A stretch of DNA of 64,000 nt from NCBI GenBank assembly GCA_023384455.1, contig JAHDWH010000004.1, positions 834 to 64,833 of the forward strand, read 5' to 3'. This DNA is from Caldilineaceae bacterium (GTDB taxonomy: Bacteria; Chloroflexota; Anaerolineae; Caldilineales; Caldilineaceae). Shown piece after piece: positions 33,309 to 43,117 of the stretch. Every line of letters starts with the position of its first letter. The first letter of the stretch is position 1. The translations under genes and the position numbers were made by a program. Below the pieces are notes generated by a model. The model saw only the letters and a program-made list of their open reading frames with translations, was not told where the DNA came from and searched no databases.

Positions 33309-33445
33309 GTGGGAAGGTTGAAGGTTGCAAGTCGAAAGTGGCAGGTGGTCCGTCGGGTGAGTTGATGAGAAACCTGTAGCGTGAGGGATGGGGGCGGTCT
33401 GCGGGCCGCTCCCATCCATAGTTTTTTCAGCAAGGCAATATAAAA

Positions 33446-33736
33446 ATGCAAGAACAAACGAATTTGGTACAAGCCATTTCAGACATCGCTGCGGCTATGC
33501 CGATCACGCGAACGATACAACTTTATGAATTCGCGCGCTTTCTTGAGTCACATCCGTTGCCGATGGAAGAAACATTGGAGGAGATCGCAGCCGATGAAAC
33601 GCTCTGGGAATCACAATTTGCTGCGACCGAAGACGACAAACTGGCTGAGTTGATTGCAGCGGTAGAGGCTGAAATCAGCGAAGGCAAAACTTTCCCAATG
33701 TTTGATATGCAAGGCGAGTTCAACGAGTACAAATGA
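33446..33736 (+). CDS. Small acidic protein, antitoxin-like (DUF2281-like LYEFARFL motif)
   Basis: 96 aa with lower GC than the flanks. Its stop overlaps (ATGA at 33733) a 33-codon ORF that dissolves into CTGCG-type repeats. Confidence 0.45.
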   Translation: MQEQTNLVQAISDIAAAMPITRTIQLYEFARFLESHPLPMEETLEEIAADETLWESQFAATEDDKLAELIAAVEAEISEGKTFPMFDMQGEFNEYK

Positions 33737-33830: not shown

Positions 33831-34700
33831 GTGACAGCGACCCCAATACGCCGTCAACAATTCTCCTGGGCCTGGCTGGGGCTGGTCCCCTTCTTTCTTT
33901 TCGCCCTGGCCTTTTTGATCCTGCCCGCGGCCTCTCTCGTCTCTGGCAGCTTCCAGGACGGCCAGGGCAACTTCACCATCAAAAACTTTTTGGACCTGGC
34001 CCAGCCCAATATCCTCAGCGCCTACCGGCTCAGCATCAGCATCAGCGCGGTGACAGCCATTGGCGGCGCGATCCTCGGCTTTCTGTTGGCCTACGCCACA
34101 ATTCTGGGCGGTCTACCCCGCTGGATGCGGGTCTTTCTGGCGACTTTCTCCGGCGTGGCCTCCAACTTCGCGGGCTTGCCCCTGGCCTTCGCCTTCATCG
34201 CCACATTGGGGCGCACGGGTCTGGTCACAGTTCTGCTCAAGGAACTTCTGGGCATCGATTTATACGATATGGGCTTCAGCCTCTACAGCTTCACCGGCCT
34301 GAGCCTGACGTATATCTATTTTCAGTTTCCCCTGATGGTGCTGGTTATCTCCCCCTCCATCGACGGTCTGCGCAAGGAGTGGCGGGAAGCCGCCGAGAAT
34401 CTGGGCGCGTCCAATTGGGAATACTGGCGCTATGTGGCCTTCCCTGTGTTGCTGCCATCGATTTTGGGAGCGTCGATTCTGCTCTTTGGCAACGCCTTCG
34501 GGGCCTACGCCACAGCCTTTGGGCTGACCGGCGGGCTGCTCAATCTGGTGACAATTGTCATCGGCGCGCAGATTCGGGGGGATGTGCTGCACAATCCGGG
34601 GCTGGGCTATGCCATGGCGATTGGAATGATAGTAATTATGGCAATCAGTCTGAGCGGCTATTCCTGGCTGCAACGGCGCTCGGAAAGGTGGCTGCGGTGA
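33831..34700 (+). CDS. ABC importer permease (PotB-like)
   Basis: Six TM segments and an EAA-like loop REAAENLGASNWEYW. GTG start. Confidence 0.85.
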   Translation: MTATPIRRQQFSWAWLGLVPFFLFALAFLILPAASLVSGSFQDGQGNFTIKNFLDLAQPNILSAYRLSISISAVTAIGGAILGFLLAYATILGGLPRWMRVFLATFSGVASNFAGLPLAFAFIATLGRTGLVTVLLKELLGIDLYDMGFSLYSFTGLSLTYIYFQFPLMVLVISPSIDGLRKEWREAAENLGASNWEYWRYVAFPVLLPSILGASILLFGNAFGAYATAFGLTGGLLNLVTIVIGAQIRGDVLHNPGLGYAMAIGMIVIMAISLSGYSWLQRRSERWLR

Positions 34701-35494
34701 AAAAGCGCGCTTCGTTCTGGGCCTGGCTCTGGATTGGGCTGGGTACACTCTATTTTATACTGCCCCTCTACGCCACCTTCGACTTCTCCCTGCGCGCCAA
34801 ACGGGATGTGTTGAGTCTGCGCGCCTACGAGCGGGTGTTGGAAGACCCCCGTTTTCTGGCGACCTTTGGCTTCTCGGCCCAGGTGGCGGTGGTGACAATT
34901 GTGATGAGTATGCTGCTGATTGTGCCCACCTCCTATTGGGTCCATCTGCGCTTTCCCAAAATGCGCCCAATTGTCGAATTTATCACCCTTCTGCCCTTCG
35001 TCGTCCCGGCGATTATTCTGGTCTTCGGTCTCATCCGCATCTACAGCCGCCCGCCCTTTTTGCTCACCGGCTCGGTCTTTGCCACCAATTTTCTGCTGGT
35101 CTCCGGCTATGTGGTGCTCTCCTTCCCCTATATGTACCGCTCGGTGGACGCAGGGATGCGGGCCATCGATGTGCGCACATTGACCGAAGCGGCCCAAAGC
35201 CTGGGCGCAGGCTGGCCTACAATTTTGTTCCGGGTCATCTTTCCCAATCTGCGCACAGCTCTGCTCAGTGGCGCGTTTTTAACCTTTGCGATTGTGATGG
35301 GCGAATTTACCCTGGCCGTCTTCCTGGCCCGCCCAGCCTTTGGGCCGTATATGGCCCTCATCGGCCAGGACAAAGCCTACGAACCCTCCGCCCTGGCCAT
35401 CCTCAGCTTCGCGATGACCTGGGCCGCAATTGGGATCATCCAGCGCATTGGCCGGGCCTCGCCGGGGCAGGCACAGATGGGTGGGACGCACTAG
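34697..35494 (+). CDS. ABC importer permease (PotC-like)
   Basis: The GTG at 34697 overlaps the upstream stop (GTGA). Loop TEAAQSLGAGWPTILFRV. Confidence 0.85.
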   Translation: MKKRASFWAWLWIGLGTLYFILPLYATFDFSLRAKRDVLSLRAYERVLEDPRFLATFGFSAQVAVVTIVMSMLLIVPTSYWVHLRFPKMRPIVEFITLLPFVVPAIILVFGLIRIYSRPPFLLTGSVFATNFLLVSGYVVLSFPYMYRSVDAGMRAIDVRTLTEAAQSLGAGWPTILFRVIFPNLRTALLSGAFLTFAIVMGEFTLAVFLARPAFGPYMALIGQDKAYEPSALAILSFAMTWAAIGIIQRIGRASPGQAQMGGTH

Positions 35495-35536
35495 TTGCCG
35501 TGATGACTCTCTAAACAAAAACAAGTGGTGGTAGGC

Positions 35537-36094
35537 ATGAATGAATACGAATTTGTTGTACCGTCGGTAGCCTTGCAAAAGTACGGGATGCATCTTACCG
35601 CACAACAAGAAGAATTTAGCATTGCTTATGTACACTCATTGGCATCATCAATGGGATATGGAGTCGAAGAAATTCGTAGGGATGTGGATAGCGTTGATTT
35701 AACAATTCGTCAGTATGGAACGCAGAATGGTTCGACTGTAGACTACCCTATGATCGATAGTCTACGCGTACAAATGAAATGCAGCTACTACTCTGAACCG
35801 AAAGACAATACTCTTGATTTTCAGTTAAAGCGCAAGAACTACAACGATCTAAGCCAAAACACAGTATTTCCCAGAATTTTGGTAGTTCTTCATATTCCAA
35901 GAGATGTAAATACTTGGTTGACCCACGCCGACGATCATATGATTTTGAGACATAATGCCTATTGGATTTCTCTTTACGGGGAGCCGCCAATTCAAGCAGG
36001 TAGTAAGGTCGTAAAGATTCCGCTTTCGCAGCGACTTACTGCTGCAGAATTGCACAGATTAATGAACATCCTGGCCCAGGGGGGACGACCATGA
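35537..36094 (+). CDS. DUF4365-like PD-(D/E)xK (restriction-endonuclease-fold) protein; ORF A of the low-GC cassette
   Basis: QQEEFSIAYVHSLA, RRDVDSVDLTI, then LRVQMKCS (D..D / QxK arrangement). The GTG at 35525 is an alternative start. Confidence 0.65.
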   Translation: MNEYEFVVPSVALQKYGMHLTAQQEEFSIAYVHSLASSMGYGVEEIRRDVDSVDLTIRQYGTQNGSTVDYPMIDSLRVQMKCSYYSEPKDNTLDFQLKRKNYNDLSQNTVFPRILVVLHIPRDVNTWLTHADDHMILRHNAYWISLYGEPPIQAGSKVVKIPLSQRLTAAELHRLMNILAQGGRP

Positions 36095-37254
36095 GAGTTG
36101 ATATCCTGGAACATGAAATCATTGATACAATTGATCCGGGTTTGATCACCCGGTATCTCATATCTCATAATTGGACTAAATTGCCAGATTCTCCTGAGGG
36201 ATTAGAGATTTGGGACAAGGAGTCGGCTGATCACCGACACTTCCGAGTTTGGATTCCCCAAAGCCGCAGGTTTGCGGATTTTGATACAAGTATACTTCGC
36301 GTCGTCAAGACATTAGCACAAGCAGAGGATCGATCCCAATTACAGATAATCGAGGATTTTGAAACCGTTGGCACAGGTGACATTATTCGCGTCAAAACGG
36401 AGGATGACTTTCAACGACATAACGGGACGCTTCCGCTTTTCAACGGTATTGAGCTAATGCATCAAGCCCGCGATATGACAATCGCAGCAGCTCTTTCCAC
36501 TATTGAGCGACGCGAGGTTTATTCTAATCGTCGTCCCAATCAGGTAGTTGATTACATCAAAAGTGTGCGAATGGGGCAATCCGAACGTGGAAGCTATGTC
36601 GTGAAGTTGATCTCGCCTATTGACTCAGCACAATATCAACAGCTTGGTTTGGAAGGGATCGGGCCATCAGAAGCACCACCATTCGAGAGACAGGTTGTAA
36701 TCAATCTTGAGCGTAGTTTGAACGCTCTTTCGTCGGTTGCTAACGATGCATATAAAAGAGGACGGTTTTTCTTTCGGGCATTTCAGGAGGTTGTAGATGA
36801 AGGGATCAGTGCTAACTTATGCGAAGCCATCGCTCCACTTAGAGACCCCAATGAATACTTTCATCCTGTGGAAGTAAACATAAGTTGGTCATACATTATA
36901 CAATCACCTTACACAACGACAAGTTCTGTGGTCTTTCCTGTACAAGTAATGCCCCTTATTGCCGAGGCCGCTCGAGAATTTCGCCAGAAAAACCCTGAAG
37001 ATATTTTTCTTCGGGGATATGTAACAGGTCTCCGGCGGCGTAAGAAGGGTGATCCCAATTCCGTGACATTGGCGGGCAATGTAGACGATCGCCTTAGAAG
37101 TGTGAAAATCACCTTAAGCGAAGAGGCATATGAATTGGCGATTAAGGCACACGAAAATGATTCTGAGGTTTCTGTAATGGGTACGCTTCTCCGACAGGGA
37201 ACTTTTCTAGCCTTGGAAAATCCCACAAATTTCCACATTCGTGACAACGACTAG
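36091..37254 (+). CDS. 387-aa protein with no recognisable family; ORF B of the low-GC cassette
   Basis: ATGA overlap with ORF A and a G-rich RBS. No P-loop, HNH, HEPN, PIN, TIR or SIR2 motif was seen. Confidence 0.7.
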   Translation: MRVDILEHEIIDTIDPGLITRYLISHNWTKLPDSPEGLEIWDKESADHRHFRVWIPQSRRFADFDTSILRVVKTLAQAEDRSQLQIIEDFETVGTGDIIRVKTEDDFQRHNGTLPLFNGIELMHQARDMTIAAALSTIERREVYSNRRPNQVVDYIKSVRMGQSERGSYVVKLISPIDSAQYQQLGLEGIGPSEAPPFERQVVINLERSLNALSSVANDAYKRGRFFFRAFQEVVDEGISANLCEAIAPLRDPNEYFHPVEVNISWSYIIQSPYTTTSSVVFPVQVMPLIAEAAREFRQKNPEDIFLRGYVTGLRRRKKGDPNSVTLAGNVDDRLRSVKITLSEEAYELAIKAHENDSEVSVMGTLLRQGTFLALENPTNFHIRDND

Positions 37255-37301
37255 GGAGATGATCTCGTAGTCCCAGATAACACATTTCATAGCAGGTATC
37301 C

Positions 37302-38348
37302 ATGTCTCTCCTCGAACTCAAAAACATCGCCAAATCTTATCAAAACGCCGTCGCCGTCCGGGACTTCAGCCTGGACGTGGACGAAGGGGAGTTTGTCTCC
37401 TTTCTCGGACCCAGTGGCTGTGGTAAGACGACGACCCTGCGGATGATCGCGGGCTTCGAGCGGTCCGACGGCGGCACGATTCGGCTGGAAGGCAAGGACA
37501 TCACCGAGACGCCGCCCAATCAGCGCAATGTGGGGATGGTCTTCCAGTCCTACGCCCTCTTCCCCAATATGAATGTGGCTCAAAATATCGGCTTTGGGCT
37601 GAAACTGGCCCGCCGCCCCCAGAGCGAGATCACCCGGCGGGTGGCGGAGATGCTGGAGATGATCCATATGGAGGGCTACGGCAACCGCTACCCCTACCAG
37701 ATGTCCGGCGGTCAACAGCAGCGGGTAGCCCTGGCCCGGGCCATCGCCATCCAGCCCCAAGTGTTGCTCCTGGACGAACCTCTCTCCGCGCTGGATGCCA
37801 AAATCCGCGTGGAACTGCGGGAGGAGATTCGCCGTATCCAACACGACCTGAATCTGACGACGATTTACGTGACCCACGACCAGGAGGAGGCGCTCTCCCT
37901 CTCGGACCGGGTGGTGGTGATGAGCGCGGGGGAAGTGGAGCAGATCGGCCCGCCCTTTGAAATTTACAACTACCCCAAGACCGCCTTCACCGCCTCTTTT
38001 ATCGGCCACCTGAACCACTTGACCGTCGATGTGCTGGACAGCGCAACCGGTCGTTTTGCCTGGCAGGGCACAGAAATACGGGTGGAAGAGACCCAGCCCG
38101 TTACAGGCAAGCAGGCCCAGCTCGCCATCCGCCCGGAAGAGATGCGGCTGGGCGGCAACGGCGACAACCGGCTGCCCGGCACAGTGGCGGCCATCTCCTT
38201 CCTCGGCTCGATTGTGCGGGTGAAGGTGGATGTGGGTGGAACGATTCTGGCCGTGGATCTGTTCAGCACACGCAGCCTGACTCTGCCCAAGGGGGGAGAT
38301 GCGGTAGAAATCACATTCTCCTCCCAGGCTTGTTGGGTGGCGGAATAG
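37302..38348 (+). CDS. ABC importer ATP-binding protein (PotA/FbpC-like with a C-terminal TOBE domain)
   Basis: Walker A GPSGCGKTT, signature MSGGQQQRVALAR and Walker B LLLDEPLSALD. Confidence 0.9.
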   Translation: MSLLELKNIAKSYQNAVAVRDFSLDVDEGEFVSFLGPSGCGKTTTLRMIAGFERSDGGTIRLEGKDITETPPNQRNVGMVFQSYALFPNMNVAQNIGFGLKLARRPQSEITRRVAEMLEMIHMEGYGNRYPYQMSGGQQQRVALARAIAIQPQVLLLDEPLSALDAKIRVELREEIRRIQHDLNLTTIYVTHDQEEALSLSDRVVVMSAGEVEQIGPPFEIYNYPKTAFTASFIGHLNHLTVDVLDSATGRFAWQGTEIRVEETQPVTGKQAQLAIRPEEMRLGGNGDNRLPGTVAAISFLGSIVRVKVDVGGTILAVDLFSTRSLTLPKGGDAVEITFSSQACWVAE

Positions 38349-38356
38349 AAGCTGTC

Positions 38357-38725
38357 ATGAATTATCTTCGTTGCATCCAAAATAGCGCCTATATTCAATT
38401 CGGCGATGAACCCGTACGCGACCAGCCTTTGGCCAGTCTGACAGTCGGCTATATCTACAAAACTTTGCCGCCGACACCGGACGAGCAACGGTTGGGCGAA
38501 GTGCGTATAATCGACAACGAGGGCGAAGATTATCTCTATCCGGTAGATTATTTTGAGAGCGTTCCGTTCGATGGGGGCAGTGAGGCCACTGCGACGACGA
38601 CAGTGCATCTCGACCCGGTGACAAAAGGGATATTGCGGGCCGAGGCGATTGCGGCCAAGACATCTGTCAGTGCGCTGTTGCGCGCGTGGATTGACGAACG
38701 TTTGGATCTGCCAGTCACACAGTAG
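38357..38725 (+). CDS. Hypothetical protein with a C-terminal ribbon-helix-helix (CopG-like) segment
   Basis: VHLDPVTKGILRAEAIAAKTSVSALLRAWIDERL. It starts 9 nt after the ATPase stop. Confidence 0.55.
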   Translation: MNYLRCIQNSAYIQFGDEPVRDQPLASLTVGYIYKTLPPTPDEQRLGEVRIIDNEGEDYLYPVDYFESVPFDGGSEATATTTVHLDPVTKGILRAEAIAAKTSVSALLRAWIDERLDLPVTQ

Positions 38726-40862: not shown

Positions 40863-40904
40863 GCAAGAGAATTACCACCTCATCTCAATTTGAGATACAA
40901 TTGT

Positions 40905-41192
40905 ATGCACATTATCTCCCGCAAGCGACTTCGAGAATTCTGGGAAGACAATCCCGACAGCACAACTTCATTGCAGCGTTGGTATAAAATCGTCAGCCGC
41001 AGCAATTTTGATAATTTTCAGGCGATACGGCATACGTTTCCGTCGGCTGATCTTGTGGGGGAACTGGTGGTTTTCAATATCGGCGGAAATAAATACCGTC
41101 TCATCGCATCAGTTCACTTCAACCGCCAGAAGCTGTATGTACGGCATGTTTTGACTCATTCAGCATATGACCGAGGAGAATGGAAACAATGA
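40905..41192 (+). CDS. higB: Type II toxin HigB (RelE-superfamily mRNA interferase)
   Basis: MHIISRKRLREFW..VVFNIGGNKYRLIASVHF..LYVRHVLTH..YD. Confidence 0.85.
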   Translation: MHIISRKRLREFWEDNPDSTTSLQRWYKIVSRSNFDNFQAIRHTFPSADLVGELVVFNIGGNKYRLIASVHFNRQKLYVRHVLTHSAYDRGEWKQ

Positions 41193-41587
41193 ATGTCGCG
41201 TTCGATACACTTTTGCCGCACTGGACAGCCATCGAACCTGTTCTCTCGATACGCAATGAGCCGGAATACGATCGTGCACTTACCCGGCTTGACCAACTGC
41301 TCGACGAAGTGGGTAATGACGAACGACATCCTCTCTACAATCTAATGGATACATTAGGCTCACTTGTCCACAGTTACGAAGAAGAATTTGTCACCCTTCC
41401 TGAGAGTTCTGGGATTGATGCCCTGCGCTTTTTGATAGAAGAACACGGGTTGAGCCAATCGGGTCTGCCTGAAATTGGCTCTCAAGGCGTTGTATCGGAA
41501 ATTCTGGGTGGGAAACGGGAACTGAATGTGCGCCAGATTCGCGGACTAGCGGCGCGCTTTGGCGTCTCACCTGCCGTCTTCTTCTGA
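41189..41587 (+). CDS. higA: HigA-type HTH antitoxin
   Basis: ATGA overlap with higB and a GAGGAG RBS. C-terminal Xre-type HTH GLSQSGLPEIG..VSEILGGKRELNVRQIRGLA. Confidence 0.8.
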   Translation: MNVAFDTLLPHWTAIEPVLSIRNEPEYDRALTRLDQLLDEVGNDERHPLYNLMDTLGSLVHSYEEEFVTLPESSGIDALRFLIEEHGLSQSGLPEIGSQGVVSEILGGKRELNVRQIRGLAARFGVSPAVFF

Positions 41588-41605: not shown

Positions 41606-42043
41606 ATGTCTCAAACCGTCGTGCTCGAACTACCCGATGAGATCCTTGTAAGTTATCAGAAAGGGGCGACTGCCGCGCGCAAACCATTGGAAGAATTTCT
41701 GGTGGACAGGCTCAATGAGGCGGTTTCTGTGTACGTTGCGGATACCAGAACGGATACTCAAACAGAATCGCCGGCGCTGCCCCGTTCTGAAGCCAAACTA
41801 TTGCAGCAGATCAACTTAGGATTCAGCGAAACAGAATGGGCAGAATACCGCGGGTTGATCGCCAAACGTCGGGCTGGCACTCTGCTGCCCGACGAACAAC
41901 ATACCCTGACCCAAATTGCGGAAAGACACGAACAGGCAAATGCGCGACGAATGTATGCCCTCGTCAAATTGGCACAGCTTCGCCAGATAGAGTTGGACAT
42001 CTTGATGGACGAATTGGGCATCTATACGCCTGGCTATGAGTGA
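41606..42043 (+). CDS. Hypothetical protein, partner of the downstream HNH gene
   Basis: 145 aa with an AAGGAGG RBS. Its 3' end overlaps the HNH ORF start. Confidence 0.55.
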   Translation: MSQTVVLELPDEILVSYQKGATAARKPLEEFLVDRLNEAVSVYVADTRTDTQTESPALPRSEAKLLQQINLGFSETEWAEYRGLIAKRRAGTLLPDEQHTLTQIAERHEQANARRMYALVKLAQLRQIELDILMDELGIYTPGYE

Positions 42044-42222
42044 ATGGATTTCGCCCGGCCAAAAGCGTCAGGTTGCTGAACGCGCACGTTTTGTCTGCGA
42101 ATACTGCCTGAGCCAACTTCGCTATTCACCGGACCCGTTCTCCGTCGATCACATCATTCCTGTTGCCCGGCAAGGCTCAAATGATGTGGACAATCTGGCG
42201 CTGGCTTGCCAGGGATGCAAAT
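42036..42222 (+). pseudogene. HNH endonuclease, 3'-truncated after the second CxxC
   Basis: FVCEYC..DHIIP..NLALACQGC. After this point the ORF reads the ABC ATPase gene out of frame. Confidence 0.6.
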
Positions 42223-43117
42223 GCCCATCTACTCCATCCGCTCTCTCTCCAAAAGCTACCCCGGCCAGAGCCGCGCCGCCAACGACGACATCAGTTTCGA
42301 CGTGCAGTCCGGCGAAATTTTCGGGCTGCTGGGGGACAACGGCGCGGGCAAGAGCACCCTCGTCAAGCAGATGGCGAATCTGCTGCGCCCCACCGCCGGG
42401 ACGATTACCCTCTTTGACAGACCCATCGACGCAGACCCGATGCACGTACCCCTGCACGTGGGCTATATGCCCCAGGACGGCCGCGCCCTCAACAGCCTGA
42501 CCGTCGGCGACGCGCTCTACTTCACTGCCCATCTGCGGGGACGTAGTAGGCGCGACGCCCAGGCCGAGCGGGAACGATTGATCGACCTGTGGGAATTGGG
42601 CGAGATACACAACAAACCCACCAGCCGCCTTTCCGGCGGACAGAAGCGGCTGCTGCAATTGGCTGTGGCCATGGCCGGTCAGCCGCTTGTGCTGATTCTG
42701 GACGAACCCACCAACGAATTGGCCCCCCAGCGCCGCCGCCACGTCTGGGAATCCCTGCGCGCCGAGAACCGGGAGCGGGGCACGACAATCATTTTCATCA
42801 CCCACGACGCGCTGGAGGCCGAGAAGATCATCCAGCGGGTGGGCATTCTGGGCGGCGGGCGGCTGCTGGCGTTGGGCACACCCCAGGCGCTGAAAGCACA
42901 GATCGACCGCCAGTTGCGCCTGGAAATCTTCTTCCCGCCCGAAGAACCACCGGCCATTCTTTCCCATCTGCCCTCTGTGGAACTCACACCGGGACGCCAT
43001 CTTCTCTATCTGGAACGGGAGCAGGTCGATGGTATCCTTGCCAGTCTGAACGGCGTAGACGACTTCCGGCTCTATTCTGCCACCCTGGAAGACCTCTATC
43101 TCTCCTATGCAGGATAG
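42215..43117 (+). CDS. ABC-2-type transporter ATP-binding protein with no cognate permease nearby
   Basis: Walker A GDNGAGKST, signature LSGGQKRLL and Walker B LILDEPTNEL. The start is ATG 42215 or 42221. Confidence 0.85.
   Translation: MQMPIYSIRSLSKSYPGQSRAANDDISFDVQSGEIFGLLGDNGAGKSTLVKQMANLLRPTAGTITLFDRPIDADPMHVPLHVGYMPQDGRALNSLTVGDALYFTAHLRGRSRRDAQAERERLIDLWELGEIHNKPTSRLSGGQKRLLQLAVAMAGQPLVLILDEPTNELAPQRRRHVWESLRAENRERGTTIIFITHDALEAEKIIQRVGILGGGRLLALGTPQALKAQIDRQLRLEIFFPPEEPPAILSHLPSVELTPGRHLLYLEREQVDGILASLNGVDDFRLYSATLEDLYLSYAG

Follow-up and report, generated by a model that had tools for sequence, protein, structure and literature searches.

The 64,000-nucleotide (nt) stretch of Caldilineaceae DNA analysed here, hereafter the window, carries at positions 35495-37301 a two-gene cassette lodged between the second permease gene and the ATPase gene of an ATP-binding cassette (ABC) importer operon. 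Its two open reading frames (ORFs), A and B, almost certainly form a member of PDC-M02, a candidate system of the PADLOC defence catalogue, and comparison with related operons indicates, with high confidence, that the pair was acquired horizontally as an insertion between two cistrons of the importer operon. The best explanation overall, towards which we lean, is that this acquired PDC-M02 cassette serves as a defence module in which B controls the nuclease A.

The assignment to PDC-M02 is based on the PADLOC-DB profiles, both of which are matched over their full length. Residues 18-183 of A align with profile positions 1-163 of 165 of PDC-M02A (E 2.4e-51), and residues 1-385 of B with positions 1-375 of 380 of PDC-M02B (E 9.9e-102). 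The order, orientation and adjacency of the genes are likewise those of PDC-M02, with A upstream of B and co-directional with it, and nothing structural differs between this locus and the catalogued candidate. The cassette and its immediate flanks are laid out as follows:

35537-36094, + strand: ORF A, 185 amino acids (aa), ATG start; predicted stand-alone DUF4365/DREN nuclease of the PD-(D/E)xK type, matching PADLOC PDC-M02A
36091-37254, + strand: ORF B, 387 aa; matching the PADLOC PDC-M02B protein
36091-36094, + strand: ATGA stop/start overlap of A and B; the same 4-nt overlap in most homologous loci
34697-35494, + strand: ABC importer permease 2 (left flank); Pfam BPD_transp_1, 94% identical orthologue P0115, junction alignment
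35495-35536, + strand: left spacer, 42 nt; not related to the 107 nt that separate the two ABC genes in the empty allele; no significant hairpin or repeat
36091-36990, + strand: ORF B residues 1-300; two alpha/beta regions (alignment, AlphaFold2 model)
36991-37254, + strand: ORF B residues 301-387; barrel resembling an oligonucleotide/oligosaccharide-binding (OB) fold, b1-b2-b3-helix-b4-b5 (secondary structure, Foldseek)
37255-37301, + strand: right spacer, 47 nt; without terminator-like hairpin
37302-38348, + strand: ABC importer ATPase (right flank); Pfam ABC_tran and TOBE_2, junction alignment

The PDC systems originate from the work of Payne, Hughes, Fineran & Jackson 2024 (bioRxiv 10.1101/2024.01.29.577857), who used "guilt-by-embedding" on cassettes found inside BREX, DISARM and Type I restriction-modification (R-M) operons, and curated 145 "phage defence candidates" that were added to PADLOC as predictions. 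PDC-M02 is their CAS_00021 (FAM_01850>>FAM_00842), with a count of 894 and the entry "Assign as candidate PDC-M02" (Payne et al. 2024, supplementary table 8). Whereas the candidate was defined from embeddings in BREX, DISARM and Type I R-M operons, the copy described here lies inside an ABC importer operon. An initial annotation of the window, made from its sequence, had regarded the pairing as undescribed; it is in fact already catalogued, as a predicted defence candidate. The same annotation had proposed an anti-phage or abortive-infection module, and here a defence or conflict role is still the best reading, although of a candidate already listed and not of a new one.

The identity of A as a DUF4365 protein of the PD-(D/E)xK fold, suggested at the outset from its motifs, is borne out by the Pfam profile PF14280 (E 1.3e-19; 71 bits against a gathering cut-off of 24.3; profile positions 1-137 of 139). 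Its catalytic signature is intact: in an alignment of 44 family members D49, D54, Q79 and K81 are invariant (RDVDSVD ... VQMKCS), and D51 and S52 are conserved in at least 90%. These residues correspond to the DUF4365 signature DxGxD...QxK, the alignment of the first Asp pair to the Pfam hidden Markov model (HMM) being approximate. Mutation of this signature abolishes the toxicity of EAT16, where individual mutation of three of the four signature residues (D42, D46, Q66, K68) is sufficient (PMC11297309), and Q62 and K64 are the residues that were mutated to inactivate TmuRE (PMC10810196). From such experiments on other DUF4365 proteins, we infer that A is a metal-dependent nuclease. Two other starts are available for A, the GTG at 35525 that is listed in the ORF map and the ATG at 35588 (M18); as most homologues begin near M18, ATG 35588 may be the true start.

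Insertion into the importer operon and alleles of the slot

The coordinates of both ORFs, their ATGA overlap and the two spacers were all reproduced, the spacers being set by the permease-2 stop codon at 35494 and the ATPase ATG at 37302. The flanking ABC genes match SBP_bac_6, two BPD_transp_1 permeases and an ABC_tran plus TOBE_2 ATPase in Pfam. Base composition separates the cassette from these genes. Hand counts of G+C in the initial annotation proved exact (41.0% at 36121-36220, against 64.0% at 35301-35400 and 56.0% at 37321-37420), and G+C over 35495-37301 is 44.5% compared with 59.5% for the window, the lowest among all 1807-nt segments of the 64 kb (z = -3.46; 0.08% as low). G+C at third codon positions (GC3) is 0.40 and 0.41 for A and B, against 0.75-0.79 for the four ABC genes.

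Permease-2 orthologues revealed three natural alleles of the slot between permease 2 and the ATPase: filled with the cassette, empty, and filled with a leucine-rich-repeat (LRR) gene. The filled allele of the window is shared by all 22 contigs that were read and carry an identical A, with the same gene order. In the relative GCA_046766455.1 (L090; permease 2 94% identical) the operon runs from the gene for the substrate-binding protein (SBP) through a 96-aa ORF, permease 1 and permease 2 to the ATPase, with a 107-nt spacer in place of the cassette, and the two ABC genes are also adjacent in a 73%-identical relative (L098). The third allele is found in L094-L097 (permease 2 92% identical), where the slot is occupied by a 422-432-aa LRR protein and not by PDC-M02; this protein has a hydrophobic, signal-peptide-like N-terminal segment, as judged by eye, and lies at 3199-4497 in L097. 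The slot thus accepts unrelated cargo, as the LRR gene of this sister lineage demonstrates.

In the nucleotide alignment with the empty-site relative, homology stops at the permease-2 stop codon and restarts at the ATPase ATG. Between these points the spacers of the filled and empty alleles are unrelated, and the junction alignments contain no target-site duplication. The absence of the cassette from L090 and L098, together with the LRR gene in L094-L097, shows that it is not a conserved native component of the operon, and the horizontal acquisition proposed in the initial annotation is well supported by the empty site. A cyanobacterial origin was considered and dropped, as a protein 100% identical to A is annotated in a metagenome-assembled genome of Caldilineaceae (Chloroflexota).

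How the cassette entered is less apparent from its ends. Searches for border repeats, hairpins, attC-like sites and Rfam families, combined with a promoter/terminator scan, gave no mobility or regulatory signature: the borders yielded no repeats, significant hairpins, integrase or Rfam families, and no attC-like imperfect inverted repeat was found at the 3' border (hairpin z 0.56 over 37245-37310, no border repeats). The promoter/terminator scan detected no terminator-like hairpin in the right spacer (37255-37301), ahead of the ATPase gene, and the left spacer of 42 nt lacks a convincing promoter; the cassette is therefore probably co-transcribed with the ABC operon, and read-through into the ATPase gene is plausible. 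Within the cassette, the ATGA overlap couples A and B translationally.

The same operon contains a second low-G+C insert, the 96-aa ORF at 33446-33736 between the SBP and permease-1 genes (G+C 0.474, GC3 0.505). It is preceded by a strong terminator-like hairpin at 33386-33417, with a 14-bp stem and a T-run, and has no match in Pfam, PADLOC, NCBIfam or PHROGs. This ORF is present in L090 and absent from L094-L097 and L098.

The pair in other genomes and the fold of B

A pattern scan over 185,579 GTDB species representatives, with a single genome for each species, gave 573 stretches encoding B relatives, distributed patchily across many phyla. Co-occurrence of the two genes elsewhere had been suggested as a check in the initial annotation, and it is strong. 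By iterated HMM searches of 80 fetched loci, B is immediately preceded in 72 of them by a co-directional DUF4365 gene, which in most cases overlaps it by 4 nt; two of the other eight have B at a contig end. The same pair was found in a further six of six loci and as genes 1-2 of one M. abscessus prophage. The two genes form a conserved pair that is coupled at translation.

The neighbourhood was surveyed through 110 ORFs flanking the pair in 40 genomes, giving qualitative counts without a background control. A minority of these ORFs match Type I R-M subunits, Type IIG and Type IV enzymes, components of MADS and PbeA, or ResIII/SNF2 helicases. The pair lies between HsdS and HsdR in two loci (L036 and L051), has HsdR downstream in L012, and accompanies a Type IIG enzyme in L014 and a PD-T4-6-like kinase in L032. 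It is tightly flanked on both sides by co-directional genes in about 8 of 40 loci, and in 23 of 40 other loci its G+C is more than 0.03 lower than in the flanks. The context of insertion changes with almost every genome. Mobile carriers include 14 plasmids, two M. abscessus prophages (genes 1-2, at the left end) and eight IMG/VR contigs, and the pair matches phrog_27905 (protein A) and phrog_27927.

The closest relatives of the window cassette lie next to an insertion sequence, in a VapE-primase element, after another ABC importer and before BrnT/BrnA, or alone, and in L100 a RelE/helix-turn-helix (HTH) toxin-antitoxin (TA) pair adjoins PDC-M02. The importer-associated copy (L104, 2076-9182; B 45% identical) directly follows a different ABC importer operon (Peripla_BP, ABC_tran, BPD_transp_2). 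This second association with a transporter operon may be coincidence, and no link to transport was seen in other loci of the pair.

The initial annotation had been unable to place any motif in B, in keeping with the lack of a match in Pfam or NCBIfam. A Pfam scan of 89 B relatives left 88 without a match and gave one stray sub-threshold hit. By exhaustive profile search the B family comprises 7,018 representative clusters at E <= 1e-3, nearly all of 375-400 aa, with no informative domain fusions among the best 150 relatives. Its conserved motifs are W28, D97, RxGQTERGSY around 160-168, PFER at 197-200 and GVSANLCEA at 237-246, and the protein is acidic overall. Neither A nor B gave a significant match in the PDB by sequence or profile search.

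In order to examine the fold of B, we used AlphaFold2 models, of the whole protein (89 sequences; mean pLDDT 90.3, pTM 0.86) and of residues 1-300 separately (pLDDT 90.9). Foldseek comparison of residues 1-300 with the PDB gave no meaningful match (best probability 0.14, template-modelling (TM) score about 0.2), and this region therefore shows no structural similarity to Argonaute or APAZ. The full-length model gave only weak local matches to OB folds, over residues ~300-385: Stn1/Ten1, SSB, RPA32 and the N-domains of AspRS and LysRS (E 5e-3 to 7e-2), with TM 0.37-0.55 on the target for Stn1, SSB and RPA32 at weak E. The secondary structure of the C-terminus (strands 303-315, 323-331 and 334-342, helix 344-355, strands 359-369 and 372-383) fits OB topology, with the helix between b3 and b4, and is suggestive of an OB-like domain.

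The viral structure library contains a full-length relative of B in Leptospira phage LE1 (E 4.5e-24) and weaker matches including a DUF6575 protein. A structural alignment over 83 columns links B to A0A482MK90, a protein of 101 aa from a Nodularia phage in BFVD (TM 0.73 on the target, root mean square deviation 1.7 Å). The phage may encode a copy of one subdomain of B, which might then act as a decoy or inhibitor; a tblastn search with B residues 1-105 failed to retrieve the protein.

Proposed control of A by B and rival explanations

To gain insight into how the pair might work, we compared it with systems that use the same nuclease domain. DUF4365/DREN is the collateral DNase/RNase effector of SPARDA, in which DREN on its own is an inactive monomer that becomes active when filament formation drives it into tetramers (PMC12205087); the domain alone stays inactive until it is assembled (PMC10810196, PMC12205087). 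SPARDA and PDC-M02 share this effector family (PD-(D/E)xK, D...QxK), encoded in both beside a larger partner, the sensor in SPARDA and a putative one in PDC-M02. They differ in that A is 185 aa of DUF4365 only, without APAZ fusion, and in that B has no similarity to MID/PIWI or APAZ (in Pfam, or in Foldseek with the full model and residues 1-300), with no guide-nucleic-acid machinery evident. DUF4365 also acts as a toxic or defensive nuclease module in EAT16, a toxin associated with extracellular contractile injection systems that carries it at the N-terminus, and in 'Divona', an integron cassette in which it is fused to crr6. These are single fusion proteins with other delivery or host contexts, whereas A is a separate polypeptide with a dedicated partner and no attC-like border structure. 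As an insertion, the cassette resembles defence genes embedded in operons, such as PrrC inside Type I R-M, being a small cassette between cistrons that leaves the flanking genes undisrupted. Other PDC-M02 copies do lie between hsdS and hsdR, but the host operon here is a housekeeping transporter.

By analogy with SPARDA, A would be the effector, a stand-alone DUF4365/DREN metal-dependent nuclease of the PD-(D/E)xK type, and B its family-specific partner in 1:1 coupling, acting as sensor, regulator or scaffold. B would bind A and hold it inactive or monomeric. On sensing an infection cue, which might be a phage or plasmid protein or a nucleic-acid intermediate, B would release A or assemble it into an active oligomer, and the active nuclease would then cut DNA indiscriminately, halting phage or plasmid propagation in a manner resembling abortive infection. 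Such control through oligomerisation is put forward tentatively. A defence or conflict function as such seems reasonably likely from the embedding of the pair in R-M operons elsewhere and its association with defence genes. More speculatively, and still doubtfully, PDC-M02 could be an Argonaute-independent DREN-nuclease immune system in which B, combining an unmatched 300-residue fold with a protein-binding OB domain, is a new kind of sensor that oligomerises A, and whose cassettes insert cleanly between the cistrons of arbitrary operons, R-M and ABC importer alike, by an integrase-free route.

Several observations weigh against a defence module of this design. The A-family profile detects no PDB chain, the SPARDA DREN chains included, so that A is a distant DUF4365 branch to which the analogy of activation by tetramers may not transfer. 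All OB matches of B are weaker than E 1e-3, and family members have an acidic OB-like domain (median pI 5.7), which argues against simple binding of single-stranded DNA (ssDNA) and weakens the idea of this domain as a simple "ssDNA sensor". Given this composition and the few conserved Arg and aromatic positions (R298, R316, R336, R368, Y347, H354), a protein-binding OB is as plausible as a nucleic-acid-binding one. Location is uninformative on function, since the same slot holds a non-defence LRR gene in the sister lineage, and defence matches account for only a minority of the 110 ORFs that neighbour the pair in other genomes. Payne et al. 2024 themselves report weaker defence association for embedding-derived candidates (10.1101/2024.01.29.577857). 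We found no report of an experimental test of PDC-M02, the string "PDC-M02" occurring in no searchable main text, and the papers that tested PDC candidates covered other candidates.

A TA or addiction module is one alternative. Here A would be a toxic nuclease and B its neutraliser, and the pair would persist by killing upon loss and stabilise the elements or regions that carry it, with no dedicated anti-phage role. The cassette does resemble two-gene TA and abortive-infection modules, with two translationally coupled and strictly co-occurring genes, one of them for a potentially lethal nuclease, carried on plasmids and found near TA pairs (RelE/HTH in L100, BrnT/BrnA in L104, HigBA in the window). 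DUF4365 domains are toxic upon expression (EAT16, PMC11297309), and the acidity of B is as expected of a protein able to occupy the DNA-binding surface of a nuclease. At 387 aa, however, B is a large multidomain protein encoded downstream of the toxin, its three folded regions bearing strongly conserved motifs, unlike the typical antitoxins of type II systems, which are small, labile and partly disordered and mostly precede the toxin; it is confidently folded, with no HTH, ribbon-helix-helix or AbrB match that would provide an antitoxin-type DNA-binding domain, and embedding in R-M operons fits defence better. We consider this alternative unlikely, while noting that TA and abortive infection are compatible with each other. 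Restriction-like direct immunity would instead have B recognise modified or structured foreign DNA and recruit A to cut the invader specifically and spare the host, as a split Type IV-like or methylase-independent enzyme. PD-(D/E)xK is the classical restriction fold, the cassette has no methyltransferase, the pair frequently lies within or beside R-M loci, and the OB-like domain retains a few conserved Arg and aromatic residues. That domain is nevertheless acidic, B has no recognisable DNA-binding, NTPase or modification-reading domain, and characterised DUF4365 nucleases are non-specific once activated (PMC10810196, PMC12205087), which leaves such an enzyme quite improbable.

The sharp junctions at stop and start codons, without target-site duplication, repeats or integrase, raise the question of whether the cassette is selfish. 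In a homing-endonuclease-like cycle A, with B as specificity factor, would cut empty inter-cistronic sites, and repair would copy the cassette in. This would explain the precise insertion, the tight embedding of about 8 of 40 loci between co-directional genes is in line with it, and a resemblance of DREN tetramers to the homing endonuclease I-Ssp6803I has been reported (PMC12205087). Yet with contexts that differ in almost every genome a conserved target site is lacking, the LRR gene of the sister lineage suggests that the slot and not the cargo is permissive, and homing endonuclease genes are normally single genes; we regard homing as very unlikely. Lower still do we rate a housekeeping or operon-native role, whether as a DNA repair or recombination pair (a resolvase-like nuclease with an OB protein) or as an accessory or regulatory component of the importer. 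DUF4365 has been likened to Holliday-junction resolvases (PMC11297309), OB folds are common in repair proteins, and the cassette is fixed in all 22 contigs read from this population. Its absence from the orthologous operon of close relatives largely refutes such a role, however, and its strongly deviant G+C and GC3, its patchy spread across many phyla, its carriage on plasmids and prophages, and the missing transport link at other loci also speak against it.

Taken alone, this locus adds a further copy of a candidate already in the catalogue, and the wide spread and strict coupling of the pair argue for testing PDC-M02. The system shares its nuclease domain with SPARDA, whose activation logic was recently solved, but its partner is entirely different and structurally unmatched in the PDB. 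The filled, empty and LRR-filled alleles of closely related Caldilineaceae provide a clean system in which to study the entry of cassettes into inter-cistronic spacers, and they make clear that "embedding" also occurs outside defence operons, which calls for caution with guilt-by-embedding predictions.

Other genes of the window

The initial annotation had also drawn on other conflict genes around the cassette, as in a defence island. This argument is weak: the slot itself holds an LRR gene in the sister lineage, the Rpn gene of the window is also present in the empty-site relative L090, and the presumed HNH gene is remnant-like. The latter ORF (42036-42500) has an HNH-like motif in its first ~55 residues, its remainder overlaps the start of an ABC ATPase gene (42206-43117) out of frame, and it is missing from public gene calls.

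Overlapping the 3' end of the importer ATPase gene is a small ORF (38330-38725) whose match to a ribbon-helix-helix profile is below threshold (RHH_1, E 1.4e-3). This ORF is 122 aa long in public contigs and, being absent from L090, represents another lineage-specific insert. Further downstream, at 40890-41587, lies a low-G+C HigB/HigA-like pair that matches PADLOC PD-Lambda-2_A (E 5.9e-27) and PD-Lambda-2_B (E 4.3e-19, over the first ~110 of 402 positions); from these matches it looks like a plain HigBA TA pair and not the full three-gene PD-Lambda-2 system. Neither gene is among the L090 gene calls. Elsewhere in the window, a Uma2-family (putative restriction endonuclease-like) ORF at 28500-29426 matches a second PADLOC candidate, PDC-S03 (E 4e-18).

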